Shown here piece by piece: positions 18,643-62,400 of a DNA stretch of 64,000 bases. Source of the stretch: an uncultured virus (IMG/VR IMGVR_UViG_3300017971_000212). Lineage: Duplodnaviria; Heunggongvirae; Uroviricota; Caudoviricetes. The stretch lies in IMG/VR virus record IMGVR_UViG_3300017971_000212; one strand, written 5' to 3'. The stretch's first letter is position 1. Each line of letters begins with the position of its first letter. The translations under genes were made by a program, and so were the position numbers. Below the pieces are notes generated by a model. That model saw only the letters and a program-made list of their open reading frames with translations. It did not search any database and was not told the DNA's origin.

Positions 18643-19188
18643 ATGACGACCCCGCTCAAGGGACTCAAGGTCGTGGACGCGCTGGGCGCGTTCTACCGCG
18701 ACGGCGACCGCCTCATGGTGGCCGACGAGCTCGAGGGTACGCGCGACGTGGACAAGATTTTGAGCGCGTTCGAGGGTCACGAGGTGAGGCTCCTGGCGCA
18801 CCATCGACCGCCTGACGTCCCGCTGCGAGACAGGTGGGGAGCGGGCTGCTGCCTGCTCGAGAACACGGGCCGCTGCCACTACGGGCACCACGATGATCCC
18901 GGGCTCCTGTTCGCCTTCGACTCCGTCGGCGTCCTGCGACGGGAGAAGGACGACTGGATCGTGGAGAGGTCTGACGGCGAGCGACTGCGGGTTTACGTGA
19001 ACTTCTTGGTGGGGCACAGGTCGCAGGTCGTTGTCACGTCTATTCCCGACCTAGAGAGCATCGACGAAAAGATCAAGTCGTTCGATCCGTCGAACCTGGA
19101 CCCTACCAACCTCGAGGACCTCACCGGGCGCCTTCACGAGATCCGCGAGTTCCTTCAGCAGGTCGAATCCCTCAAGCGAGATCTTTGA
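18643..19188 (+). CDS. hypothetical protein
   Basis: 181-aa ORF; stop overlaps the recD start. Confidence 0.7.
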   Translation: MTTPLKGLKVVDALGAFYRDGDRLMVADELEGTRDVDKILSAFEGHEVRLLAHHRPPDVPLRDRWGAGCCLLENTGRCHYGHHDDPGLLFAFDSVGVLRREKDDWIVERSDGERLRVYVNFLVGHRSQVVVTSIPDLESIDEKIKSFDPSNLDPTNLEDLTGRLHEIREFLQQVESLKRDL

Positions 19189-22100
19189 TGTCCAACTACT
19201 ACGCCGGGCGCGTCCAGACGGTCGTCTTCGAGAACGACGCCCAGAGCTTCTACGTCGTCAAGATGGTCCTCGACGGTCGAAAGGGGAAGAACGCCTCGGT
19301 GACGGTCCGCGGGAACGTCCCCGGACTCGAGGTGAGGGAGGGCAGCTGGTTCGGCTTCGAGGCGAAGTGGCAGAACCATCAGACCTACGGACGCCAGCTC
19401 GTCATCTCGCGCGCTCCGGTCGTCAAGAGTTGGGACGCCCAGACGACCGTGAAGATGCTGCAGGGCCACGGCGTGGGGAGCAGGGTGTGCGAGGCGCTGC
19501 TCGCCCACTTCGGAGAGGGGCTGCCCGACGCGCTCTCGGACAGCGAACGTCTCCAGGAGGTCCCCTCGGTCTCGGAGTTCACGGCGCACTACCTGGTGAG
19601 CAGGTGGCAGGCCGTGCGTTCCATGTTCCAGTCGCTCAAGTTCCTCTCGGACCTGAACCTGCCCAAGCGAAAGATCGAGCGGATCTACACCCGTTTCGGG
19701 GACGAGGCCGAGCAGGTCCTGAGCGAGAACCCGTGGGCGCTGGTCGAGATCGACGGGATCACGTTCGACCAGGCCGACGAGGTCGCGATGCGCCTCGGAC
19801 TCGACCTGAAGTGTGCCGGACGCATCAGGGGCGCGGTCCTCCACACCTGCAAGGTGCGCCGCGGCATGGGGCACCTGTACCTGAACTCCGGCGAGATCGT
19901 GCAGGGCGTGCACCAGTACGCGCCCGACACGGAGCGACAGCGCATCGCGGAGACCCTCAAGGGGCTCCACGACGAGTCCCTGCTCGTGCTCGACAACCAG
20001 ACCCGGCCACAGACCACGGCCATCTACGAGCCCTGGTTCCACGAGGTCGAGAGGGAGAGCGCCCGTCTCCTAGCGGAGAGGATGGAGCACGCGAGCTTCG
20101 AGGACGACGACGACTTCGCGGAGTACCTCGAGAAGCTCTCCTCCGTGGGCCCCGAGACGAAGAAAGTCGCGGAGGCAGGGAGTCGCGGGCTCGGGGACGT
20201 CGCGCAGGCGGCCATCACCGAGTGGTCGAGCCACGGCGAGATCCGACTCTCCGAGGCCCAGCTCGAGGGCGCCGTCAACGCCCTAGTCGAGCCGGTGTCG
20301 ATAGTGACGGGACTTCCCGGGACTGGGAAGTGCGTGGTACCCACCACTTTAGTGAGCGGCCCCTGGGGCGCGCGGCCCATCGGAGACTTCCTACCGACGG
20401 GTCTTGCACCTGACCAAGACCAGACGCTTTCCCTCGACATTGATACGAGCAGGGGAATCGAAAAAACGGCGTACATCTACAATGGAGGCGTAGCTCCCAC
20501 TGTCCGCATCACGACGCAATCGGGGTATACCTTGGAGGGCACTCCAGAACATCCCATCCGCATCGTTCAGGAAGGGGACTTCGTCTGGAAAAAGATGGGC
20601 GACCTGGGCGTCGGTGATGTCCCTGTCATAGTTCGGGGCAGTTTCCACTCCTCAGGGTCCGGCGGCGCGGAGCTGCCCCCGCTGACCGAAGGCGACTATC
20701 GGGAATTTCGATACCGCAGCCCTAGACGGATGTCGGAGGCTCTTGCGCGGGTCTTGGGTTACCTGATCTCAGAGGGCACCGTCACGAGTGCCTCCCACTG
20801 GGCCGTGACCAACCACGATCCTCGCGTCCGCAACGACGTCAGGCGGTGGTGCCAAGATCTGTTCGGCTACGAGGTCCGAGATCATTATGACAAGCGAGTC
20901 GGTGGCCTCGTGGGTGTCCGTCTCAACAGCGTACAGCTTATCAGGTGGTTTCGGGCGTTGGGCGTGGGTGCCGCCACCTCCTTCACTAAAACCGTCCCGC
21001 ATGTCATTTTGGCGGGATCGGAAGGCGAGCGCCGAGGTTTCCTTTCCGCTCTATTTGAAGGAGACGGCACCGTGCACGCTGAGCGGTTTTCGGTTGAATA
21101 TGGAACCCGGTCCGAGAAACTTGCACGCGGTATCCAGTATCTACTTCTGACGCTCGGCATCGTCTGTTCTTTTCGTGAAGAACAGAGAGAGGGCGCCTCG
21201 TGGTACCGGCTCTCCATGTACGGGCAGGACTACGACAGGTTCCGAGAACGTGTGGGGTGCGAGTTCAAGGTCCTCCCTGAGAGAACCACGAAGACCAACA
21301 CGAACCGGCACCTGATTTACAACGCCGAGTCGCTCATCGAGGCACTCATGGCACAGACGCGTCCCAGGAAAGGAACTGATTACGATCGGTTTTACCGATA
21401 TGGGAAGGGGAAAAACGGTAATGAACGGCATCCGTCCCGCGAACATCTGGAGCAGCTGCTGGGTTACGCGAAGAGGTCAACGCCAGTCACCGAGAGACTC
21501 CGGGCTTTGATGCGAGAGGATTTTTTCTACGACCCCATCACGACTATTGAAAGCGGCGTTTCCCAAGTTGTCGATTTCGGTGCGCCAGAAAGTCACGAGT
21601 TTCTCTCAAACGGGTTCATCAGCCACAATACGACCCTGCTGAGGATCGTCGTCAAGGTGCTCCAGGACGCGGGGGTGCCCTTCCTGCTCGTGGCCCCGAC
21701 GGGCATCGCCGCCAAGCGCATCACGGCGGTCACGGGCGCCGAGGCGTCGACCATCCACCGGGCGTTCGGAGCCCGTGGCGCCAGGAGCGAGGACGGTCGA
21801 GAGAGCACCTACGCCGGGATCGTGGGTGACGCGGTGTCCACCGTGGACGCCGACGGCAGCGACGAGTACTGGAGCTTCTCGACGATGCGCCCGCACCCGG
21901 CGCGCGTGGTGGTCGTGGACGAGAGCAGCATGATGGACCAGCACCTCCTCTTTCGGCTCCTGAGTTGCACCGTCTCGAGCTGCCGGCTGGTGTTCGTGGG
22001 CGACGCCGCCCAGCTGCCCTCGGTCGGGCCCGGAAACGTGCTGCGCGACTTGGTGGACAGCGAGCGTTTTCCGGTCGTGAATTTGCGGGAGATCTTCCGT

Positions 22101-22835
22101 CAGGACGAGGCCAGCGACATCGTGATCGCGGCTCACGCCATCAACGGAGGCACCGTCCCGAGTTTCAAGGATGGCTCGAGGGACTTCACCTTCGTGGAGG
22201 TCCGAGACGAGGCGCAGGTGCTCGAGATGGTCGTGGGCACGGTCGAGAAGCTCTACGCTCGCAGAACCAACTTTCAGGTGCTCAGCCCGCGTCACAAGGG
22301 GACCCTGGGCGTCACGAACCTGAACCTGCGCATCCGCGAACTCCTGAACCCCAAAACTCCCGGCCTCCGGGAGATGCGCCTCGGCTCGGAGACGGTTCGC
22401 GAGGGAGACCGCGTGATGGTCTCCAAGAACAACTACCGCTACGAGATCTTCAACGGGGACGTAGGCAAGGTCACCCGGCTGGACGAGAGGTCGAAGTCGG
22501 TCTCCGTGAAGATCCACGGTCCTCCGGTCATGCAGGTGGAGATGCCGTTCAGGGACGCCCCTGAGCACCTTCGGCTGGCCTACTGCGTGACCATCCACAA
22601 GAGCCAGGGCCAGGAGTACGACGTCATCCTTATGCCGTGGGTGGGCGGCTTCCACCACCAGCTCCAGCGCAACCTGATCTACACGGCGATCACGCGAGCG
22701 CGGAAGAAGGTGATTCTCGTCGGACATCCCGAGGCTTTGGAAAAAGCCGTTCGTAACAGCAAGATCGATACGCGAAATACTCTCTTTCCCGACCGTCTGA
22801 GGGCGTTTCTCGGCCGATTCAGCAGGACCCCGTGA
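19188..22835 (+). CDS. recD2: RecD2/TraA-like SF1B helicase with an intein
   Basis: ENPW, GLPGTGK|TT, APTGIAAKR, VVDESSM, VGDAAQLPSVGPG, IFRQ, AYCVTIHKSQGQEY and YTAITRA. Confidence 0.93.
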   Translation: MSNYYAGRVQTVVFENDAQSFYVVKMVLDGRKGKNASVTVRGNVPGLEVREGSWFGFEAKWQNHQTYGRQLVISRAPVVKSWDAQTTVKMLQGHGVGSRVCEALLAHFGEGLPDALSDSERLQEVPSVSEFTAHYLVSRWQAVRSMFQSLKFLSDLNLPKRKIERIYTRFGDEAEQVLSENPWALVEIDGITFDQADEVAMRLGLDLKCAGRIRGAVLHTCKVRRGMGHLYLNSGEIVQGVHQYAPDTERQRIAETLKGLHDESLLVLDNQTRPQTTAIYEPWFHEVERESARLLAERMEHASFEDDDDFAEYLEKLSSVGPETKKVAEAGSRGLGDVAQAAITEWSSHGEIRLSEAQLEGAVNALVEPVSIVTGLPGTGKCVVPTTLVSGPWGARPIGDFLPTGLAPDQDQTLSLDIDTSRGIEKTAYIYNGGVAPTVRITTQSGYTLEGTPEHPIRIVQEGDFVWKKMGDLGVGDVPVIVRGSFHSSGSGGAELPPLTEGDYREFRYRSPRRMSEALARVLGYLISEGTVTSASHWAVTNHDPRVRNDVRRWCQDLFGYEVRDHYDKRVGGLVGVRLNSVQLIRWFRALGVGAATSFTKTVPHVILAGSEGERRGFLSALFEGDGTVHAERFSVEYGTRSEKLARGIQYLLLTLGIVCSFREEQREGASWYRLSMYGQDYDRFRERVGCEFKVLPERTTKTNTNRHLIYNAESLIEALMAQTRPRKGTDYDRFYRYGKGKNGNERHPSREHLEQLLGYAKRSTPVTERLRALMREDFFYDPITTIESGVSQVVDFGAPESHEFLSNGFISHNTTLLRIVVKVLQDAGVPFLLVAPTGIAAKRITAVTGAEASTIHRAFGARGARSEDGRESTYAGIVGDAVSTVDADGSDEYWSFSTMRPHPARVVVVDESSMMDQHLLFRLLSCTVSSCRLVFVGDAAQLPSVGPGNVLRDLVDSERFPVVNLREIFRQDEASDIVIAAHAINGGTVPSFKDGSRDFTFVEVRDEAQVLEMVVGTVEKLYARRTNFQVLSPRHKGTLGVTNLNLRIRELLNPKTPGLREMRLGSETVREGDRVMVSKNNYRYEIFNGDVGKVTRLDERSKSVSVKIHGPPVMQVEMPFRDAPEHLRLAYCVTIHKSQGQEYDVILMPWVGGFHHQLQRNLIYTAITRARKKVILVGHPEALEKAVRNSKIDTRNTLFPDRLRAFLGRFSRTP
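20331..21629 (+). mobile_element. intein (433 aa) with LAGLIDADG endonuclease in the helicase P-loop
   Basis: GK|CVVPTT ... TPEHP ... FISHN|T; LGYLISEG and FLSALFEGDG; more AT-ending codons than the flanks. Confidence 0.93.
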
Positions 22836-22879: not shown

Positions 22880-23317
22880 ATGTCAGAAGCGCACAGCCAG
22901 AACCCTCCCTCCAAGGACGAGGCGCGCCGGTGGCTACGCCGAGTTCGGCGGGGCATCCGCGTCACGAAGATAACGTGCACGCGCTGCGTGAAGGGCCGGA
23001 ACGGAGACAGCTTCGTCGGCTTCTCGGCGGCGTGGCAGTCCGTGCAGGACGACATGGGTGGGTCGGGCGACGTCCACGTGGAGGAGGACGATGCCGAGGA
23101 GCAGGCGGCCCAGGGGCTCAACCTGAAGGACGCCAAGCTGGCGCGGCACATGCTCGCGATGGAGGTGGACCTCGCCGCGCTTGAGTCCGCGGTCGCGAAC
23201 GGCACCATCAGCGCGAGCTACTTCGCGGACGCCACGAAGGGCGTCCGAAACAACTACAACGAACTCATCATGCGAGAGATGGGACTTCTGACCGATGACG
23301 GCGACCAAGGCAAGTAG
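22880..23317 (+). CDS. hypothetical protein
   Basis: ORF in the operon; start may be 22832 or 22880. Confidence 0.65.
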   Translation: MSEAHSQNPPSKDEARRWLRRVRRGIRVTKITCTRCVKGRNGDSFVGFSAAWQSVQDDMGGSGDVHVEEDDAEEQAAQGLNLKDAKLARHMLAMEVDLAALESAVANGTISASYFADATKGVRNNYNELIMREMGLLTDDGDQGK

Positions 23318-24260
23318 CGAGCAGAAGAGGCCCGCGCCCGTCGTCGATCTCGAGCGGATCGGGCGGACGTACGCCGAGCTCAAGGACATGGAGGTCAAGC
23401 TCGACCCTAATCCCATCGAGTACGGCCCCAAGCGGTTCAACAACCGCATCGCCCGCGTCAGGGCCCTCCTGAACCGCGTCGATCAGATCTTCCTCCAGAT
23501 CTCGGAGGATCTCCACTACTTCCAGCGAGACATCAACGCCCGGCGCACCCTCTACGAGCTCGAGAAGCGCGAGCTGCTCGTGAACGATCCGAGGTGTCGG
23601 GTGGGGCGCTCGCAGCAGGAGCGCGAGGCCCTGGCCGACGTGCAGCTCAGGGACCAGATCGAGAAGATTCAGAACCTCGAGGCGCAGGCCCACGACCTGG
23701 AGACGCTCATGATCTCGGTCAAGTCCAAGCGGACGGACCTCAAGAACGTTCAGGGTCGGATGAAGGACCAGATGAAGCTCATCGAGCACGACATCGGGAT
23801 GGGCGCGCGCTGGGGCGGCGATGGCGGCCCTTCGCTCCTCAGCGACGGGGTGAAGGAGATCGACGAGATGCTTGCCAGCGTGGACGAGCGCATGAGCTGG
23901 ACGGACGAGGGCGACGAGGTGGCCCCCACCTCGGGGAAGGACGCGACCGCGGACGAGCCCGACGAGGACGACGAGGAAGTCGAGGCGAGCGACGACCAGG
24001 ATCCGGCCCCGCAGGCGTCCGAGGAGCCCGTGCTCGAGTTCGGGGCGCCCGACGGAGAGGCCGTTCCCGACATCGCCGAGCTGCTGCCCTCGACCGAGGA
24101 GCAGACGCCCCTTCCCGACGACGGCGTCGAGCGGGACGCCGACGACTTCCTGACGAATTTCGATCCAGAGACGGAGGACGGCGAGGAAAGCGCGGAGGGA
24201 GGAGAAGCCCCAACCTCGGACGGGATCGATGACCTGATCGCGAGCTTCGCCGACGACTAG
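23295..24260 (+). CDS. coiled-coil protein with long acidic tail (possible recombination mediator)
   Basis: Helical N-terminal half, D/E-rich C-terminal half; lies between recD2 and the SSB-like, ruvC and recA genes. Confidence 0.6.
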   Translation: MTATKASSEQKRPAPVVDLERIGRTYAELKDMEVKLDPNPIEYGPKRFNNRIARVRALLNRVDQIFLQISEDLHYFQRDINARRTLYELEKRELLVNDPRCRVGRSQQEREALADVQLRDQIEKIQNLEAQAHDLETLMISVKSKRTDLKNVQGRMKDQMKLIEHDIGMGARWGGDGGPSLLSDGVKEIDEMLASVDERMSWTDEGDEVAPTSGKDATADEPDEDDEEVEASDDQDPAPQASEEPVLEFGAPDGEAVPDIAELLPSTEEQTPLPDDGVERDADDFLTNFDPETEDGEESAEGGEAPTSDGIDDLIASFADD

Positions 24261-52087: not shown

Positions 52088-55000
52088 ATGGCAGCGGAAG
52101 GCAGCAAGAACGCAATCGCGGGATCGGCGTCCCCGTCCTCACAGAGGAAGAACGAGGACGAGCGCGTCGTGGCGGACGTCCCGAACACCCGGCCCGAGCT
52201 GCACATCGGCAAACCCACCCGCGTCGTCGTCGGATCTATGAGATCGAGGGGCGGCCCTACCAGCTTCCGCGCGAGGGTGGCGAGCTGCGGGCCGGGCACC
52301 GGCAGCTACGGCGGCGTCAGTGCCGGAGGCGGCGGCACCGGCTACGGAGGGTACGGAGGCTTCGGAGGGAACTTCGGAGCCGGAGCCGTCATGCAGGCGA
52401 GCTCCGGAAACTTCTACTCCCCCGAGCTGAGCACCGACTTCCTTGAGCTTCCCCAGTCGCTCAACGAGCAGTGGAACTACTACAGGTTCTTCTACGACAA
52501 CGAACCGTTCGTCGGGCAGGCGCTCGACCTGCACACCGAGCTGCCGCTGTCCAAGGTCCGGCTCGGGCGCCCGAAGGCCAACGACAGGCGGATGGCCGAG
52601 GCGTCTCTGCGGTTCTGCGAGAAGTGGGTGAAGCGCATCGGGCTGCTCCAGCGTCTGCTCGAGATCGTCCACGACTACTTCAAGATCGGAGAGGTCTACA
52701 TCTTCTGCGAGGACGCCAACCCGGAGATCCCACAGGACGTCCGGAAGAAGGTCGTGAGGCGCGTCGAGGCGGACGGCACGCTGACGGAGACGTGGGTCGA
52801 CCGCGAGGACGCGAACGAGCGCACCGTCAGGTGGATGAAGCAGCACTACAAGGGGTGGACCAGCATCAGGACCGTCCCGCCCGAGCAGATCCACCTCCAG
52901 ACGTTCCCGTTCACCGACGAGGTGTTGATCGATCTGATCCCCGACTCGAAGAGCAGGCACCTGCTCGACATGGCCGACCAGGGCGACAAGTACGCCGCGC
53001 GCGTCGTCAAGTCCATGGATCCGGTCGTGGTGGAGGCCCTTCGCAGGGGAGAAAACGTCCCGCTCAGCACCGACCCGGACGGCGGCTCCTTCGTCCACTA
53101 CATGGCGAACAAGAAGTCGCAGTACGAGCCGAGGGGCCACAGCATCCTCCAGCGGTGCCTTCTTCCCGGCACGCTCATAACCGTCCAGCGCAACGGGATC
53201 GTGCGGCAGGTCCCCGTGGAGGACGTCGACACGACTACGGATCTCCTGTTGACCCACAAGGGTCGGTTCCGTCGGGCCACGGCAGGTTCTCGCCCGGTGC
53301 GCGAGAGGGTCGCGGTCCTGCGCATCGAAGGCGTCGAAGACCCCTTGGCCCTCACCACTGACCACGAGGTGCTCCTCGTGCGGGAAGACGGCACCGAGGC
53401 GTGGGTGCCCGCGGGCGAAGTGCGCGAGGGCGACATCGTGCGCGAGAGTCACGTTGTCCCGGAGAACGAGCCCGTCCCTGAGATCGACCTCGCGACGTGG
53501 TGGAGTAATCGGAGGCTCAACGTTGCGCGACGTTTCCGTGAAAACGCGAAGGAAGTCGAAATCCGCAACCGTGAGGTTCGCGTCATCGACGTCGAGGATG
53601 GTCCCGATGGGCTCACCGTCACCTTCGAGCACGACAACGACGACGCGGGTCAGATCGAGGCGACTGAGGGGATGCGTCGGTTCGTGGCATGGCTCAAGAA
53701 CCTGGACGCGCCCACGGAGGCCACCTATGACGAGATCGCGGCCGTCACCGGAGTCGACAAGTCGAAACTCAGGAACTACGCGCACCTCCTCCGAAGGGAA
53801 GCGGATCTGCGCACCGAGAGTCGGAGCCTTGGACGGGGTCGAGGTCGTCGCACGACCTGGTGGCCCCTCTCTGGCGACGCGGTCGTCCCGCGAGAGACCC
53901 GCTGCGTCACGATGACGTCCCCCGTCGCCCGGATCGAGGTGGACGAGGGATTCTGTTACCTGCTCGGCACGTGGGTCGGAAACGGCAACATCTGGACCTC
54001 GGACGAGTTGGTCCTCAATTCTCATTCCGTCGCTTGGACCGCGGGCACCGGCGACCTGGAGCAGGAAATCAAGGCAGAGGAGATGAGGCTCGCCAGTGCC
54101 TCCTTCGGCGACCAGTGCTCGGACGGCCACCTGTTTGGAGAGGAGTCCGGCTCCGACGCGTTCAGGATTGAGGATCCGCTCCTGGCGCGGTGGTTTATGG
54201 ATGAGTTCGGGCACTCGGCCCAGAGCAAGCGGATCCCGAGGTGGCTCTTCGACCTCGACGAGGCTCGCGTGTTGGCGTTCCTGCGGGGACTGCTCGACAC
54301 GGACGGGAATCTCCAGGAGAGGACGACACAGACGACCATCAGGTTTGAGATGGATAACCGCGTCCTCCTCGACCAGGTGCATCTCCTCTGCAACAGGCTC
54401 GGGATAAAGACCCAGGTCAGGAACTATGTGAAACCCGCGCGGTCGTGGACGCGGCGCTGGAAGACCAAGAGGGGTTGGAAAGAGAAGAGTTACCATTACG
54501 ATGCCAAGGCGTACGCGACTCTCACGGCGACGCGCCACGCTGACGTGCGTCGTTGGGCCGAGGGGTCCGTCAAGGGATCGAAGGTCGAGTGGCAGGACAA
54601 GACGCACCCGAACGCCCTGCGTACACAGTTCGTGAACGGATGGCTCACGCGGAGGGTCGAAGGCACCGGTTTGGTGCCATACGAAGGACTCGTGTTCTCG
54701 TTCGATGTCGAGGGAGACGAGTCTCACGTAACACATCAAATGGTGACCCATAACTGCTTGAGAACATTAGTATTTTTTGATAAGTTGAGACAGGCCCAGA
54801 CCAGCATCGCCTCCCGGCACATGACGCCGATCCGGCTCGTCTACGCCGAGGACATGGACGAGGAGAACACCGAGGCCCTCCGCGACCAGATCGACCTCGC
54901 CCTCCAGGACCCGGACTACACCATCGTCACCAACTTCCAGGTGACGTGGGAGGAGATGAACTCGAACGGGCGCCTCCTCGAACTCTCGAGCGAGTACGAC

Positions 55001-55537
55001 CTCATCGCGCGGCAGCTCTACGCGGGGCTCGGCGTCACCGAGACCCTCCTGAACGGAGAGTCGAGCTACAGCGGCGACCGCATCAACCTCGAGGTCATCA
55101 ACACGCGCTACATGCTGCTCCGCGAGAACGTCCAGCGCCTCGTCGAGGAGTACTTCTTCAAGCCCATGTGTCGTCGGATGGGCTTCGTCGAGGAGGACGA
55201 GGACGGCCAGCTCGAAGTGATCTACCCGCGCCTGAGCTTCACGCGGCTCGCCCTGCGCGACAACCAGGACACCTTCGACGCGCTGTTCAACCTCTACCAG
55301 AAGGGGAGCCTCGACATAGAGACGATCCTCGACCTGCTCAACATCGACCCGGTGGTCGTCCGTGAGAGGCTCGAGGCCGACTTCGGGACCTTCAACGACT
55401 CGCAGTTCAACGAGGTCCTGCGCTCCGCCTACGGGCGCGTCGGCGACCAGCTCGTCGAGGGGTCCGACATCGTTCAGAAGATCGCCGACGTCCTGGGCGT
55501 GGACTACAAGAAGCCCGAGGAACCCGGACGGTTCTAG
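52088..55537 (+). CDS. portal protein with an intein
   Basis: Follows the terminase; about 616 aa after splicing; portal-like FVGQALDLHTELP, RGHSILQR|CLRTL, GLGVTETLLNG and YFFKPMC. Confidence 0.75.
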   Translation: MAAEGSKNAIAGSASPSSQRKNEDERVVADVPNTRPELHIGKPTRVVVGSMRSRGGPTSFRARVASCGPGTGSYGGVSAGGGGTGYGGYGGFGGNFGAGAVMQASSGNFYSPELSTDFLELPQSLNEQWNYYRFFYDNEPFVGQALDLHTELPLSKVRLGRPKANDRRMAEASLRFCEKWVKRIGLLQRLLEIVHDYFKIGEVYIFCEDANPEIPQDVRKKVVRRVEADGTLTETWVDREDANERTVRWMKQHYKGWTSIRTVPPEQIHLQTFPFTDEVLIDLIPDSKSRHLLDMADQGDKYAARVVKSMDPVVVEALRRGENVPLSTDPDGGSFVHYMANKKSQYEPRGHSILQRCLLPGTLITVQRNGIVRQVPVEDVDTTTDLLLTHKGRFRRATAGSRPVRERVAVLRIEGVEDPLALTTDHEVLLVREDGTEAWVPAGEVREGDIVRESHVVPENEPVPEIDLATWWSNRRLNVARRFRENAKEVEIRNREVRVIDVEDGPDGLTVTFEHDNDDAGQIEATEGMRRFVAWLKNLDAPTEATYDEIAAVTGVDKSKLRNYAHLLRREADLRTESRSLGRGRGRRTTWWPLSGDAVVPRETRCVTMTSPVARIEVDEGFCYLLGTWVGNGNIWTSDELVLNSHSVAWTAGTGDLEQEIKAEEMRLASASFGDQCSDGHLFGEESGSDAFRIEDPLLARWFMDEFGHSAQSKRIPRWLFDLDEARVLAFLRGLLDTDGNLQERTTQTTIRFEMDNRVLLDQVHLLCNRLGIKTQVRNYVKPARSWTRRWKTKRGWKEKSYHYDAKAYATLTATRHADVRRWAEGSVKGSKVEWQDKTHPNALRTQFVNGWLTRRVEGTGLVPYEGLVFSFDVEGDESHVTHQMVTHNCLRTLVFFDKLRQAQTSIASRHMTPIRLVYAEDMDEENTEALRDQIDLALQDPDYTIVTNFQVTWEEMNSNGRLLELSSEYDLIARQLYAGLGVTETLLNGESSYSGDRINLEVINTRYMLLRENVQRLVEEYFFKPMCRRMGFVEEDEDGQLEVIYPRLSFTRLALRDNQDTFDALFNLYQKGSLDIETILDLLNIDPVVVRERLEADFGTFNDSQFNEVLRSAYGRVGDQLVEGSDIVQKIADVLGVDYKKPEEPGRF
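53156..54754 (+). mobile_element. intein (533 aa) with LAGLIDADG endonuclease and HTH-like insert
   Basis: QR|CLLPGT, LTTDHEV, LLGTWVGNG, FLRGLLDTDG and MVTHN|C. Confidence 0.92.
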
Positions 55538-55578: not shown

Positions 55579-58143
55579 GTGCCCTCGCTCATCCCCGACA
55601 ATTTCACGAAGGAGACGCCTCCCGAGCCGGTGCGTCAGCTCGCGGAGGCGTGGCTTCGCGCGAGGCTTCGGGGTGCCGAGCCCGACTTCCTCGACGTGGC
55701 GGACGGGGCGGTGATCGGCGTCTACCGGCTGCCCTGCGGCCTCGTCAGGCGGGCGAGCCACAGCTTCTCGCGGTGCATGGCGAAGGGCTGCCAGAAGCCG
55801 CCCGAGGTGGAGTGCCTCTGGGCCGAGGGTCGCGGCCGTGCCTGGCACTGTCAGAAGCACCACGACGCCTGGGTGAAGGAGGACGGTCCGGACGGGCGCG
55901 ACATCATCAAGCAGCAGAAGATTCCCGACGGCGTCGTGGGCGAGAAGTACGGCGAGTATCCGGCGAAGAAGACGGCCGGGGACGGCGACGAGTTCAAGAA
56001 GGGCGACAGGATCGTCTACGGCCCGCTCGTGCCGCCCGGCCCCAGGTACCTGCCGGGGATCGTCGTGAAACCGCAGGCCCCCTCGAGCCTCGACAACCCC
56101 GTGACGATCAGGGTGAAGGGAGAGGGCACGTTCGAGACCGACCCCGACAGCGTGACTCCGCTGTCCCGGTGGAAGCGAAACCCGGATCTCGGCAAGACGG
56201 CCAAGGCGACAGGCAAGAAGACCGGCGTCGGCGAGCACGTCGGGCTGTTCATCCCGCTTCCGAAGGATCTAGCCAAGAAGTTCCCGTCGCTCGGCGAGGA
56301 CGACCCGTCCCCGTCCCACGTGACCTTCCTCTACATCGGCGACTGCAAGGGCAAGCGCGACCAGAAGGTCCTGGTCGACACGCTCCGGGACGCCTGTCGG
56401 CGCTGGTGGCCCGGCGCCAAGGCCACGCTCGGGGGCCTCGAGTACTTCACCCACGAAGACAAGGATCGTCGCGTCCCCCACGTCTCCGTGGACTTCGACA
56501 AGGACCTGTCGGGTTTCAAGCACCGCATCAGGCAGGAGCTCGAGGAGAACGGCGTCGAAGTCGAGGACAGCTGGCCCGACTTCAAACCCCACGTGACGCT
56601 CGGATACCTACCGGGTACGGACTCCGAGTGGAAGGGCAAGGTTCCGAAGGGTTCCTGGAGTTTCGACGAGATGGAGGTCTGGGGTCTCCCGAAGGTCCAC
56701 AAGCTCAAGCTCGGTCCCTCCATCTACAAGATCTCCGACACGTGGCTCCGCGGGAGGTTGCACCGCTACGTTGCCGCGCGCTACCTCGTTCGCAAGATCG
56801 CCGGATGGTGGGCCATCAGGCCGGGCAGTCCGGGAATCAACTGCCCGCCCGTGGACAAGGGCGGCCTCATGAATGCCATCCCCGGCACGGACCCGCCGGA
56901 CGCCCGCTACAACGGGGACGGCCCGGCCGACATCATGGACGCCGCGCTCGCGGACGTCGACATGGAGTACCTGATGGAGTGGGGGCGCCCCGCGACCAAG
57001 CAGGAGCTCCAGGCGGTGTTCGACTTCTGCACTGGGGCCCTCCGCGAGGACGGTTCGAGGGACTACGGCAAGCACGAGCACGTGAATCAGTGGTTCGTCG
57101 AGTTCGCGGAATGGCTTGGCAAGAGGCCGAATGAGATCCGGTTCTTTCAGGGCGACAGCGACATCGTGGACGCCCTCCGGCAGAACTGGGACGGTACGGG
57201 CGAGTCCCTGGACGCCTACAAGAAGGAGATCCTGGACCTCGTCGACAAGACCAAGAAGTTCGAGGGCGGTCTCGAGGCCAAGGACCTGGCAGAGCGTCTG
57301 AAGGCCAGAACCCAGGTGATCCACGACGAGACCTTCCGGGGCGAGGACTGCCTGGAGGGGGGAGAAGATCCCGAGATCGTCATAAAGCGGGTAGCATCGA
57401 GGTACATGGCCTCGATCCCGCACGGCAAGAACGTCGCCCTGATGAAGTGGCTCTCGGACGTGACCAGGCGCCTGGGCGTCGCCCGGGACACCTACGTCGT
57501 CGGGGGTGCGGTCAGGAACTTCCTCATCGGTCGGCCCATCAAGGATCTCGACGTGGTGATCGACTCGGTTCGGGCCGGACGCGACTCCGCGTGGCTGGCG
57601 GCTCAGATCTCCCGGCACGTGCCCGCTCCGACGAACGTCACGACGAACCAGTACGGCGTCGCCATCCTGACGATCAAGGGGAGCTGGGTCCTCGACGGCG
57701 AGGACATGCGAGGCGAGGTGATCGAGATCGCCAACGCCCGCAAGGAGAGCTACGCGGAGGGACTCGGGAAGGGGCACAAACCCCATACGGTTGCCCCGGC
57801 CACCATCGAGGAGGACGTCAGGCGTCGAGACTTTACGATGAACGCGCTTCTCTGGCGTCTGATGGACCTGGCGCACGGGCCCGAGAAGGCCGAGGTGATC
57901 GACCTCACCGGCTGCGGCCGGCGCGACCTTGAGCAGGGGGTCCTGCGGTGCCCGCAGCCGCCCGACAAGGTGTTCTCTGACGATCCGACGAGGATGCTGC
58001 GTCTTGTTCGACTCGCCTCCAAGTACAATCTGAAAATCCCACCTGATGTGGCTGCCTCAGTACGCCGGAATGCAAGCAAACTGAAGAGAATGCCTTGGGA
58101 GGCGGTCGCGACGATCCTCATGCAGACACTGGAGGGCAGGTAA
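55579..58143 (+). CDS. polyprotein: Zn module, SH3-like module, 2H phosphoesterase, unknown domain, CCA/poly(A)-polymerase-type nucleotidyltransferase (N-terminal part)
   Basis: HVTF (56317) and HVTL (56590) 2H motifs; YVVGGAVRN..DLDVV, EIANARKESY, EDVRRRDFTMNAL and DDPTRMLR. Confidence 0.85.
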   Translation: MPSLIPDNFTKETPPEPVRQLAEAWLRARLRGAEPDFLDVADGAVIGVYRLPCGLVRRASHSFSRCMAKGCQKPPEVECLWAEGRGRAWHCQKHHDAWVKEDGPDGRDIIKQQKIPDGVVGEKYGEYPAKKTAGDGDEFKKGDRIVYGPLVPPGPRYLPGIVVKPQAPSSLDNPVTIRVKGEGTFETDPDSVTPLSRWKRNPDLGKTAKATGKKTGVGEHVGLFIPLPKDLAKKFPSLGEDDPSPSHVTFLYIGDCKGKRDQKVLVDTLRDACRRWWPGAKATLGGLEYFTHEDKDRRVPHVSVDFDKDLSGFKHRIRQELEENGVEVEDSWPDFKPHVTLGYLPGTDSEWKGKVPKGSWSFDEMEVWGLPKVHKLKLGPSIYKISDTWLRGRLHRYVAARYLVRKIAGWWAIRPGSPGINCPPVDKGGLMNAIPGTDPPDARYNGDGPADIMDAALADVDMEYLMEWGRPATKQELQAVFDFCTGALREDGSRDYGKHEHVNQWFVEFAEWLGKRPNEIRFFQGDSDIVDALRQNWDGTGESLDAYKKEILDLVDKTKKFEGGLEAKDLAERLKARTQVIHDETFRGEDCLEGGEDPEIVIKRVASRYMASIPHGKNVALMKWLSDVTRRLGVARDTYVVGGAVRNFLIGRPIKDLDVVIDSVRAGRDSAWLAAQISRHVPAPTNVTTNQYGVAILTIKGSWVLDGEDMRGEVIEIANARKESYAEGLGKGHKPHTVAPATIEEDVRRRDFTMNALLWRLMDLAHGPEKAEVIDLTGCGRRDLEQGVLRCPQPPDKVFSDDPTRMLRLVRLASKYNLKIPPDVAASVRRNASKLKRMPWEAVATILMQTLEGR

Positions 58144-58145
58144 TC

Positions 58146-58973
58146 GTGGCCGGAAGACCTTGGACGGAAGGAGAGGAGAGGCTTCTTCGCCACTTATGGA
58201 AGTCCGACCTCACGCGGGAGGAGGTCGCGGCACGGTTGCTAGGACGAACGCCGGTCGCCATACAGGTGAGGGCAAAGCGTCTTGGTCTTCGCCATACGGA
58301 TGAGCAGTTCCGCCGGATCCTTTCGAAGAAAAGCAAGGGGGAGAACAATGGGATGTTCGGACGTGAGGGGCCGCGCAGAGGTGTAGTGCTCACTGTTACC
58401 CAGCGAGATCTTCTCAGAAAGAAGGCGCTCAACTCCTACAAGAATGGGCGACCCAAGATGGTCGGTGCTCGAAACCCGATGTTTGGTAAGCCGGGCACGA
58501 TGCGCGGCAAGAAGTTGCCACCGTCGGCCAAGGCCACCCTCTCCGAGAAAGCCAAAGTCCGTTGGTGTCAGGCATCGGACGAGGAAAAGGCCAAGAAAGT
58601 CGCTCAGCTTCGTGAGGGTCGCGAGCGTCTCGGACGTGACAGCCCCTCATCGATCGAGGTGGCGATGAGGGAATGGTTGTCAGACTTGCAAACTGACTTT
58701 GAAGCACAGGTCGTGATTGGGTTCTACACCGTCGATTTCCTTGTATCGGAGAACAAGGTCATCGAGTGTCACGGCGACTATTGGCACGCGCACCCTGAGA
58801 AGTACGCGAGCGGCGACCTTGATGAGACGCAACGGCATAATGTTCACCGAGACCGCCGCAAGGCCACTTTTCTCCGAAATCGGGGTTATGGGCTGCTTGT
58901 GATGTGGGAGAGTGACATCAAGGAGCGTCCTTCGTGGTGCGTCTCGCAAGTGGAGGATTTTCTTCATGGGTGA
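58146..58973 (+). mobile_element. free-standing homing endonuclease gene (NUMOD3-like repeats plus Vsr/DUF559-like nuclease)
   Basis: GENNGMFG and GARNPMFGK; SSIE..VDF..IECHGDYWH..D..K..GY..WESDI; AT-richer codons; GTG 58146 after GGAGG. Confidence 0.85.
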
Positions 58974-59406
58974 TCCCAGGAAGGCTCTTCAGCAGATGAA
59001 GCAGCTCGGGCTGCTCGAGGTGGTCTCCGAGATGATCAGGTCGAGCAAGCCCTTCTCCGCCTACATGGCGAACCAGCTGCGGACGAACAGGAGGGTCCCC
59101 CTCCTCCTCGACCTCATGGACATGGGGGTCCCCGCGACCACGCCCCTCTCGTTCCTCGACCGCGCGGGACAGCAGCGCGTCCGCGAGGTCACGATGCCGA
59201 TGACAGAGCGCGAGGCCGCGGACTTCGTGAACCTCCTGATCAAGCCGCCCGTGGACAACAGGCGGATCATCGAGGAGCTCGGGCTCCCAGGTCCCGAGCG
59301 GCGCCTCATCCTGCCGATGGCGCGCGACCTGATCCTCAAGAACCCCCCTCTCGCGGCCGACGGGCGCAGGCTGACCGAGGAGGTCCTCCGAGCATGGCCG
59401 CGCTAG
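58966..59406 (+). CDS. C-terminal piece of the CCA-type nucleotidyltransferase
   Basis: PRKALQQMKQLGLLEVV is the helix expected next in the CCA-enzyme body; own GGAGG (58952) and ATG; same frame as 55579-58143. Confidence 0.65.
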   Translation: MGDPRKALQQMKQLGLLEVVSEMIRSSKPFSAYMANQLRTNRRVPLLLDLMDMGVPATTPLSFLDRAGQQRVREVTMPMTEREAADFVNLLIKPPVDNRRIIEELGLPGPERRLILPMARDLILKNPPLAADGRRLTEEVLRAWPR

Positions 59407-62400
59407 CACAGCTGGCCCTCCGCGTCGCCGCGAGGCACCTCGCAGCCGACGCCTACTTCGAGGTCGGCGAGGAGGTGCTGTACGGCAAGTTCAAGAACCG
59501 TCGCGGTCGGGTCGTCAGGATCTTCGACGACGAGCGCGGCGTCCCCTCCGTGGAGATTGAGCCGATCCCGAAGGGCCGCAGGCAGAACAGGATGGTGGGC
59601 CTCTACGGGATCTGGAAGCTGCCCGAGGCGCGGAAGACCGCAGCGATGGACCGCGAGGCCTGCATCATCGCGGGCCGCAAGTTCGGGGACGGCCTGTGCC
59701 TCATGAAGACCCGCGACCGGGCCTACGATCCGAAGCTCCAGGTGCTCCACGTCGAGCGGGACGGCACCGAGATGGCCGTGGTGTTCGACAAGACCACGGG
59801 CTACCTGGAGGGCGTCAACGAGCACGGCATCGGCATCGTCAACACGACGCTCATGGTCGTCCGGGACGAGCAGGAGGGCGTCAAGAAGACCAAGGGCGAC
59901 AAGCAGAAGGGGCCCAAGAGGTCCAAGGACGGTCCCAAGATCTTCAAGGCGCTCGAGGCCGAGACCCTCGACGACGCCATCCGCTCCCTCGTCTCCTTCC
60001 GCGGCGGCATCAAGGGTCACACGTTCGTGGCGGACGGCGAGCGCATGGTCTGCATCGAGCGCAGCGGCAGGCATCCGGCCAAGATCCACCGCCTCGACCC
60101 GACGCGCGTGAACACGCGCACCAACCACGGAGTCGCCTACCCCGACGCCGGCTACACCCACGGGGACGACTACGTGTCGTCCATCGTGCGGCGCTGGGAG
60201 GCCCAGAAGCGCCTCCAGAACGTGAACAATCCCGAGGTCGTGGCCCCGGCCCTGGTCCAGGCGATCCACGAGGCCGACAGCCCGTTCAACCCGGTCCGCT
60301 GCACCGACAAGATGCGGACCACGAGCCAGCTCACCATCGACACGACGAACCCGACGCTCTACCTGTACGTCATCCCCGGGCACGCCGACCTCTCCCCCCC
60401 GCGCAACGTCCTCCCCGACGGCCGACGCCCCAAGATCCCCGTGCGGACCTTCCGCTACCGGCAGAGGATGGAGGACCGCACGGAGCAGCCGGGCCGGAAG
60501 ACCGCGCGGGAGGTGCTCGCGCGCTACAAGTCGAAGAAGAAGGTCAGGTCCGAGGACGGCGACGAGACGACCGTCTACGAGTACTCCGAGCGCCAGGTCC
60601 AGCACCGCAACCGCGAGAAGGCCGAGCGCATCGAGAGGCTCCGTGGATCGATAGGCAAACTCCGCGCGCAGCTCGAGAAGGACATCAGATCCGACGACCC
60701 CAAGAAGCGCGACGTCGCGGCCGCCGTGGGCCTCATGGATCACACGTACGAGCGTCCCGGCAACGACGAGTCGGCGTCCGACGGCCACTATGGCGTGACC
60801 AACTGGAAGGTGCGGCACGTCAGGTTCGGCGACGGCCAGGCCAAGATCAGCTACGTCGGCAAGTCGGGCGTCAGGCAGCAGAAGTCCGTCACGGACCGAG
60901 ACCTCGTGAAGGCGCTCAGGGCCGCCTGCGCCGACAAGGGCGCCGAAGCGACCTGCCTGGACGTGAGCGCCGACGAGGTCAACGAGTACCTCAGGCCCTT
61001 CGGCGTCACGGCGAAGGACCTGCGAGGGCTGCACGCCAACGGGGAGATGAAGGACCGGCTCAGGCGCGTGCGCCGGGAGGGCGGCCCGCTGCCCGAGGAC
61101 CCGGAGAAGCGCGAGGAGAAGCTCAGGAAGGAGTTCGACAGGGCCCTGGACGAGGCCGCGGAGACGGTGGGCCACGAGCCTTCGACCCTCAAGAGCCAGT
61201 ACCTCGTGCCCGGCCTGGAGGAAGACTACAAGAGGGACGGCACCGTGAGCGAGAGCCACGCCAAGAAGGCGGCCGAGGCCGTGACCGACACGGCGTCCTT
61301 CTACGTGATCGCGCCCGAGGCGCTCAGGGGCATGCTCGACGACACCGACTGGCTCGAGCTCGCTCACGACCTATGGCCTGGAGAAGGGCGCCCGGGCGGC
61401 GACGCCGAGGTGCTCGTGCCCGAGATGGAACGCCAGGTCCGCGAGAGCGGTGGCGCCGTGCTCGACACCGGATGGGACGGCGGCTTCGACGTCGGCGTGA
61501 GGGGCAAGTACGACGAGCTGGGCCGGATCGAGCCCTTCGACCTGCCCGTTCGCGAGAAGGGCGCGGTGCCTCCCTACGGGTTGCGCAAGAGCGCGTCGCT
61601 GCTGCGCGTCGCCGCCGAGGAGGGGACCTCGGCCGAGCGCAGGATCCTCGCCAACGCCCTGGTGGCCCCCGTGCTCGTGGCCCGGACGCGCGAGTGGTGG
61701 CTCCGCGAGGCGCCCCACCTGTACCGGATTGCTCGCGATCACGAGAAGCCTCGACCTCGCATCGAGGGCCTCGAGTTTCCGTCCAATCTTTTCACGATCC
61801 TATGGTACGAAGACGCGGACGGGAACGACCTGGGAGACGGGGACCTTGAAGGAGAGCCGGGCGCGCCAGAAGGAGCACAGTACCAGCACAGCCAGTTCCC
61901 GCACGTCCTGCACCACAACGTCCTGCGCCTCAACGACGACGGAACCTCCACGGACCTCGGCGGCGGCGAGGCGTCCTACCCGGAAGACCTCGTGAACGCG
62001 ATGGTTCGCAGCGGGGACTGGGACGTGGGCGACGCGATCATGGTCGCCGCCCAGTCGTGCGAGCGGTGCCTGAACGTCCTGTGCCACCATTACGACCTGG
62101 ACGACGGCTACCCGTTCGGGTCCGAGGAGTACTGGAGCGCTGGCACCCGTTGTCCGATGTGCGAGAACGTGCATGCTCCCGCTCGCACGGCCGCGACGCC
62201 GAACTACGAGGCGTACGTCGAGCGCAAGAGGCGGGAGGGAGAACCCCCGCTCGACCGCGAGCGGTGGGAGCGCAGGGTCCTGGGCGTGCGCGACGAAGAG
62301 GGTCCGCGCGACTGGGACGCGCACCGCAGAGACGTGATGCGGCGTCACGAGCTGGACAAGCTGCACGCGCCCTACGATCCCGAGAACAAGCACCTGCGCA

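Follow-up and report, generated by a model that had tools for sequence, protein, structure and literature searches.

Homing endonucleases are known to have fractured the genes of a few phage DNA-metabolism enzymes without any splicing element, and the most thoroughly studied example depends on tails that were brought by the invader (PMC3045599). In this case, nrdA-a/mobE/nrdA-b of phage Aeh1, a free-standing endonuclease lies between two polypeptides that work without splicing, as demonstrated by their activity; MobE is an HNH enzyme, and the tails that the insertion gave rise to are indispensable (Crona et al., 2011, PMC3045599; PMC2988022). An SbcD-like gene for a DNA-repair nuclease is split by a Vsr-like endonuclease at one locus that also lacks a splicing element; the endonuclease 3' end overlaps the downstream half, the element supplies the stop and the start in the model of the authors, and the inserted tails are 25 and 9 residues long (Dassa et al., 2009, PMC2677866). 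I-Bth0305I, the prototype of the EDxHD endonucleases, consists of an N-terminal NUMOD/helix-turn-helix-type region and a C-terminal Vsr-like nuclease, is encoded by an intron, and cuts recA beside the site of its insertion (Taylor et al., 2011, PMC3239194). Here, a stretch of 64,000 nucleotides (nt) from an uncultured virus of the Caudoviricetes (IMG/VR record IMGVR_UViG_3300017971_000212; hereafter, the window) was analyzed, in which a class II tRNA nucleotidyltransferase (cca) gene is interrupted by the gene of a free-standing Vsr-like, EDxHD-type homing endonuclease. The split gene is real, recurrent, and probably functional as a gene-in-pieces, with a new host enzyme, a tail-less break, an EDxHD nuclease, and a readable life cycle. 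The literature search, which left most subscription journals outside its reach, found no report of an endonuclease-split CCA enzyme among the papers listed, and the supplement of Dassa et al. (2009) could list more intein-less hosts.

The N piece of the nucleotidyltransferase (57406..58143, plus strand, as are all features below unless stated otherwise) contained the head, the neck, and the start of the body domain, and ended with a TAA codon at 58141-58143. Only two non-coding nucleotides (58144-58145) separated it from the GTG start codon of the endonuclease gene (58146..58973, 275 residues). The C piece (58966..59406, 146 residues) comprised the remaining body and the tail, and started from its own ATG, 822 nt downstream of the N-piece stop and in an 8-nt overlap with the endonuclease stop. 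Shine-Dalgarno-like GGAGG sequences were located within the final codons of the N piece (58131-58135, 10 nt 5' of the GTG) and within the 3' end of the endonuclease (58952-58956, 9 nt before the ATG). The preliminary description of this DNA had missed the former; its coordinates for the TAA (58143), the endonuclease frame, the ATG, the latter GGAGG, and the 2-nt gap were all read in the sequence. It had placed the start of the enzyme gene at 57410, which was incorrect: although there is an ATG at 57406, the open frame reaches back to 55579 and encodes 854 residues, including a 2H phosphoesterase domain. As it had proposed, 58966-59406 aligned with the C-terminal part of intact homologs in tblastn searches, with identities of 63% (L002/L003), 49% (L004/L005), and 30% (L009). 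Resumption in the original frame is also true of the window but is a coincidence, as it holds in only two of the five split alleles described below.

All core catalytic motifs were found in the N piece, including D47/D49, R140-R141-D142, and D192-D193-x-x-R196, in agreement with the class II tRNA nucleotidyltransferases, whose N-terminal core has DxD, RRD, and the amino-acid template (E/D)DxxR. The labels motif A and motif B are those that we presume for the core motifs of this enzyme. The N piece matched Pfam PolyA_pol (E = 1.3e-18) and phrog_2244 (E = 2.9e-34), and all matches to the NCBIfam PcnB and CCA models were far below the cut-off. DDxxR is present in both A- and CCA-adding enzymes, whereas the full-length flexible loop between E114 and D137 of the N piece argues against a CC-adding enzyme (PMC11784652). 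The two features fit a CCA- or A-adding enzyme. The head-neck-body-tail fold was read from a model of an intact relative, L035 (predicted local distance difference test score, pLDDT, 93.9), the pieces of the window having been folded only in a complex prediction. The top Foldseek matches of the model were class II CCA-adding enzymes over the whole length (E ~1e-13, template modelling score ~0.52-0.56). The fold and core motifs resemble those in class II CCA-adding enzymes of T. maritima (5hc9/3h37), P. halocryophilus (6qy6), and G. stearothermophilus (1miv); however, these are single chains, whereas the window enzyme comprises two chains and is part of a multi-domain phage protein encoded beside a portal gene.

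The break site was mapped on the L035 model to a four-residue surface loop in the body domain that joins helices 231-243 and 248-257. The number of residues between the flanking anchors was 29, 29, 31, 26, and 30 in the split alleles and 27-30 in the intact alleles (n = 62), which corresponds to a net change of -2 to +3 residues at the break. Nothing is thus appended, and insertion-derived interaction tails of the Aeh1 nrdA type were absent from all five split alleles. The Aeh1 precedent that had been invoked for the window is thus suitable for the splicing-free two-piece layout, but not for the endonuclease, which is of the EDxHD rather than the HNH type, nor for the tails; in addition, the body-loop break is away from the catalytic motifs. 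The SbcD-like split shares the endonuclease family, the lack of a splicing element, and the overlap of the endonuclease with the downstream half, but differs in its host, in its single locus as opposed to at least five alleles plus a scar here, and in its tails.

The same inter-helix loop was split in five of 80 viral loci (the best 80 of 120 relatives), namely the contig of the window, L034, L049, L050, and L053. The endonucleases of L049, L050, and L053 were 44-46% identical to that of the window, and L034 lacked an endonuclease gene. All three frame phases were represented among the five alleles, and their stop codons also differed. A G-rich tract occurred at the same position before the endonuclease start in all five alleles, each allele had its own C-piece start codon overlapping the endonuclease stop, and a purine-rich tract, weak in L034, preceded the C-piece start. 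These retained ribosome-binding-like tracts and start/stop overlaps would be expected under translational coupling, the scheme modelled by Dassa et al. (PMC2677866). A recurring Glu-Gly at the end of the N piece was considered as a protein clasp and rejected, as it coincides with the G-rich ribosome-binding tract of the endonuclease and is absent in L050. The C piece was fused to further domains in L049, L050, and L053, and was stand-alone in the window and L034. The endonucleases at L049:3775-4809 and L050:3720-4772 carried a duplicated N-terminal helix-turn-helix module and were ~345-350 residues long, compared to 275 in the window. Furthermore, five of 103 database proteins stopped exactly 54 residues past the DDP motif, as the N piece of the window does, three of which were tied circumstantially to close endonuclease relatives, and P0003 added one more stand-alone C piece, which begins at the same point. 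No record of cultured phages covered at least 80% of the intact enzyme or of the endonuclease; Bacillus phage G and Vibrio phage vB_VmeM-32, which had appeared as split cases with two genes under the match, were found to have intact genes. The genome collection yielded four distant endonuclease matches.

Relatives of the endonuclease were also found near cca genes that were not split in the body. A cca gene was present within 2.5 kb in 11 of 78 loci with an endonuclease relative, all among the 16 best matches. These comprised four body splits, four loci with the nuclease just upstream of an intact cca gene, one with the nuclease downstream of a short 245-residue gene, and L119 and L120. The last two were near-identical and contained a distant AT-rich cca enzyme that was split at a second site, directly after motif D; its halves (L119:1821-3933, and likewise in L120) matched residues 3-190 and 195-369 of the intact L127. 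An in-frame insert of ~430 residues with intein-like ends was located just after motif B in L007 (4429-5714; identical to L096), L097, L105-L107, and L109/L110, and appears to be a second mobile element that targets the enzyme gene. Distant endonuclease relatives were also observed between the halves of a guanosine monophosphate reductase/inosine monophosphate dehydrogenase-like gene in L122, L123, L126, and L128, with intein-like ends recognized by eye. This is the split-intein arrangement of Dassa et al. (2009), whereas the split in the window has no intein halves.

L034 was the sister of the window on the C-piece tree with a support of 100/95. This tree, from one search, was midpoint rooted and contained 67 rows (5 split and 62 intact) after the exclusion of intein-bearing rows, truncated rows, and one near-duplicate. 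The end of the N piece and the start of the C piece in L034 were the same as those in the window, and its 51-nt spacer carried an 18-codon mini-open reading frame (mini-ORF) with the start and the 8-nt stop overlap of the endonuclease. The spacer also contained a 14/15-nt match to the interior of the window endonuclease, which was equaled by four of 2000 shuffles; none of the other three endonucleases gave a significant match. The junctions and the interior match indicate that the nuclease decayed and that the split stayed, and the order of events, insertion followed by decay, is directly readable in L034. Splits that persist without a nuclease gene are represented by gene 43 of phage 44RR (PMC2988022), gp41-7 (PMC2677866), and a Firehammervirus topoisomerase; unlike these, L034 retains a coupled mini-ORF, both ends of the cassette, and an internal piece.

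Both halves appear to be under purifying selection. The Nei-Gojobori ratios of nonsynonymous to synonymous substitution rates (dN/dS) between the window and L034 were 0.12 for the head, 0.06 for the tract upstream of the break (57979..58143), and 0.21 for the C piece, compared to 0.18 and 0.06 for the C part in two intact pairs. The C pieces retained 20-22 of 22 conserved columns (window, 21; intact median, 20), and the N pieces retained 104-117 of 125 (intact median, 115; lower quartile, 105), those of the window and L034 being at the low end of the range. The preliminary proposal of a gene-in-pieces is strengthened by this conservation and by the splitting of the same loop in four other contigs. 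The complex prediction for the N and C pieces of the window scored 0.81, whereas the best of three controls scored 0.02; 116 of 157 solved complexes attained the mark set for this score, as did 2 of 215 mismatched pairs. Contact agreement between runs was at least 98%, with a partner pLDDT of at least 91, and the predicted interface was formed by N residues 197-245 and C residues 1-50. The model suggests that the halves probably snap together unaided.

The endonuclease (58146..58973) was predicted to contain an N-terminal helix-turn-helix, NUMOD3-like repeats, and a C-terminal nuclease domain. Its profile matches included Pfam DUF559, GcrA, and a weak NUMOD3, as well as TIGR00632 (vsr; E = 6.3e-7, below cut-off), and a profile search also matched Vsr (1cw0) and I-Bth0305I (3r3p; E = 4.5e-7). 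D197, E207, D211, H214, and D236 were invariant in four relatives. The Vsr-like domain, the acidic and His residues, and the N-terminal DNA-binding modules together place it among the EDxHD enzymes, to whose motif letters the invariant residues may be assigned. The domain order is that of I-Bth0305I; however, the window endonuclease is free-standing in cca, and its putative cut is ~130 nt away from the insertion. Cut and insertion sites are usually apart in free-standing endonucleases (PMC2988022).

The distribution of split alleles also points to mobility. The split label required four changes on the C-piece tree, at least three of which were forced by starred branches, but only two on a tree of the tract (residue 188 to the break), a number that was as low in 0 of 500 shuffles. 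In the window, the G+C content at third codon positions (GC3) was 0.66 in both the tract and the endonuclease, as against 0.89 in the head. The tract was 0.16-0.23 lower than the head in three split alleles, whereas the difference averaged +0.04 in intact alleles, with a minimum of -0.10. Residue 202 was Arg in 10 of 10 split and in 2 of 149 intact sequences (Lys202Arg), after eight rows without the motif pattern had been dropped; Fisher P values were not used because the alleles share ancestry. The divergence of split-allele DNA from the intact consensus peaked at 57997-58014, i.e., in the codons after motif D that include Arg202. The tract (57979..58143), with its low GC3 and split-specific residues, may therefore be a co-converted segment that travels with the endonuclease, and it holds the entire predicted N-side interface. 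Region 57997..58014 is a candidate endonuclease target, present in the window in a putatively immune version, and the endonuclease may cut at or just upstream of it, ~130 nt from the insertion.

We propose that an EDxHD endonuclease gene inserted at the short loop between two body-domain helices, and that its cassette brought a stop and a ribosome-binding site at the 5' end and a ribosome-binding site and a start at the 3' end. With translation signals at both ends, three coupled proteins would be produced from one mRNA. The catalytic half (head, neck, and first body helices) and the tRNA-binding half (remaining body and tail) would reassemble non-covalently through native helix packing, with neither splicing nor added tails, into a working CCA- or A-adding enzyme that, alongside the fused 2H phosphoesterase, most likely serves to repair tRNA 3' ends. 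The cassette would spread by intronless homing: the nuclease would cleave alleles lacking the endonuclease close to motif D, ~130 nt upstream, and the stretch from the tract through the endonuclease would then be copied in by repair; the gene, once split, would remain split after nuclease decay. The probability of this whole account, i.e., an endonuclease-split cca gene, reassembling halves, and intronless homing, is estimated at about 0.78.

Several observations weigh against it. The tract tree was based on 59 columns, and a single split clade was obtained in only 6% of its bootstrap trees. The GC3 dip was absent in two of the five split alleles. Arg at residue 202 is common in distant class II enzymes, and may thus mark the donor lineage rather than immunity. 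The C-piece dN/dS was slightly higher than that of the intact pairs, dS was near saturation, and the divergence between the C pieces of the window and L034 could predate the split. Halves of one fold may pass the complex prediction by their likeness to solved structures, so that the score indicates compatibility and not binding. The metagenome scan revealed no new split among the 80 loci listed, in which L194-L217 were intact clade members, L219 ended at a contig edge, and the remainder were distant ordinary enzymes. A natural phage enzyme of 245 residues without the long body and tail (L116) belongs with these points, and is in favor of the N piece acting alone as a shortened nucleotidyltransferase, or being kept for its 2H domain, with the C piece retained on other grounds, for instance because it is coupled to the next gene or carries a fused cargo domain. 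Every catalytic motif is indeed in the N piece, and, at 59394, the C piece overlaps with the following ORF; it is fused to further domains in three alleles. However, L116 retains two helices that in the window are part of the C piece, the stand-alone C piece of the window and L034 (146 residues) had a dN/dS of 0.21 and kept 20-21 of 22 conserved columns, and the predicted interface buries its first helices on the N piece. Moreover, the body and tail bind the top half of tRNA in class II enzymes (PMC3925840). We therefore consider a self-sufficient N piece distinctly unlikely. A dead gene, in which a parasite disrupted a dispensable cargo enzyme and left only remnants behind, would be in line with the accessory rather than core nature of the enzyme and with frameshifts in L071, L098, and L109/L110 that are possibly assembly errors. 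Yet the tract that moves with the stop codon had proportions of synonymous and nonsynonymous differences of 0.74 (pS) and 0.17 (pN) between the window and L034, with a dN/dS of 0.06, the catalytic residues were intact in all aligned split N pieces, and no further stop or frameshift occurred in either piece of any split allele, which makes such decay very improbable.

A single polypeptide would be produced if the insert were removed from the RNA as a cryptic group I or other intron under the ORF, or were bypassed as in T4 gene 60. EDxHD endonucleases are known in group I introns (PMC2677866, PMC3239194). One neutral-length, in-frame U/G join was available in three of the five alleles, within G-rich ribosome-binding tracts, but no in-frame U/G join was common to all five. 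Rfam introns were not detected in the window (gathering score), in three split loci (E up to 5), or in the insert region searched alone (57950-59150; E up to 10), and junction folding was no better than that of shuffles (z of -1.1 to +0.9; +0.6 in L034); neither the conserved core nor the fixed U/G boundaries of a group I intron were thus detected. Bypassing of T4 gene 60 involves a gap of ~50 nt, matched take-off and landing codons, and a stem-loop. The gap in the window is 822 nt. That in L034 (51 nt, same frame) is near the size for gene 60, but the codon that precedes its stop is not the one that precedes its restart, and every allele has a C-piece start codon. A 51-nt spacer is too small for a group I core. 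In the window itself, an ORF may overlap a group I core; the preliminary argument that there was no room for one is weak alone, and the comparative data close the gap better. The absence of intein motifs, as described earlier, was borne out: no intein model matched either piece, and no intein residues or extra residues were found at the break. The halves are probably translated separately, without an intron or intein, as in known genes-in-pieces, in which a free-standing endonuclease lies between separately initiated halves with no splicing element, and rejoining in RNA or by ribosomes is highly improbable. An assembly artefact or chance juxtaposition could be suspected because the window is a metagenomic assembly, and the three runs whose Logan contigs cover 57725 to at least 59678 with sequence identical to the window may be the source sample itself. 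However, four diverged contigs from other assemblies have the same architecture, and re-assembled contigs span the insert unchanged; these independent alleles already largely refute an artefact, the probability of which is negligible.

The window is phage DNA, with terminase and portal genes just upstream of the enzyme gene and a 100% match to a viral contig; related contigs reach ~500 kb. One low-depth contig from run X2 bridged the insert (window 57953-59003), perhaps representing an insert-free relative from the same sample. The enzyme gene directly follows the portal gene and is fused to a 2H phosphoesterase. The N-terminal part of the 854-residue ORF (55579..57405) contained this domain (residues 244-349; Pfam PF13563, E = 7.9e-8; TIGR02258, E = 4.7e-8, below its cut-off) and other modules that share the frame of the nucleotidyltransferase. 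A role in tRNA repair has been proposed for the CCA enzymes and 2H phosphoesterases of phages (PMC7824862). No sigma-70-type promoter or plus-strand terminator was identified in 57300-59600, and the next ORF, which carries a topoisomerase IB core, starts at 59394 and is overlapped by the C piece. Among 67 relatives, 30 had a frame that was open for more than 100 residues upstream of the enzyme, and 31 had one downstream; judging from these frames, the enzyme appears to be a module within shuffled multi-domain phage proteins. A short R-V-A-x-R-aromatic motif was observed at module boundaries (window 56764, 57388, 59421, 1727, 1979, 7487, and 62844), with seven matches on the plus strand and one on the minus strand. 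Of 67 loci, a looser form occurred within 60 residues on the upstream side of the enzyme in 13, on the downstream side in 13, and inside the enzyme in none; the C piece of the window lacked the motif, which is possibly a cleavage or packaging signal. LAGLIDADG intein-like inserts were also present in the portal gene (52088-55537) and in a RecD2-like helicase gene (19185-22835) of the window. A tRNA-Ser predicted by ARAGORN (23569-23649, minus strand) was apparently spurious, as it lies inside a plus-strand ORF (23295-24260) and has no Rfam match.

The modular nature of the enzyme also allows a bolder reading, in which a nuclease lineage specialized on phage cca genes turned the enzyme into a two-part clasp, a portable docking pair for cargo chains from which the phage benefits. 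Because the enzyme is a module of shuffled multi-domain proteins, its tail-less halves would link separately made cargo chains, one bearing the 2H phosphoesterase and the other bearing pyrophosphatase-like, zinc-ribbon, or 2H domains. Homing could then swap the catalytic and tRNA-binding halves between phage lineages. We regard this reading as speculative and rather unlikely. Irrespective of it, the tail-less break suggests a simpler route of gene fission, in which insertion into a loop between self-packing helices needs to supply translation signals alone. The alleles form a series (intact gene; split gene containing the nuclease; split gene with a scar; intact gene flanked by the nuclease; gene interrupted at a second position) that illustrates the fixation of gene fission. 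For biochemistry, the free-standing EDxHD nuclease comes with a target region predicted to span 18 bp, and a natural two-chain class II nucleotidyltransferase would offer a handle on the role of the body and tail in tRNA binding and in the counting of C-C-A.

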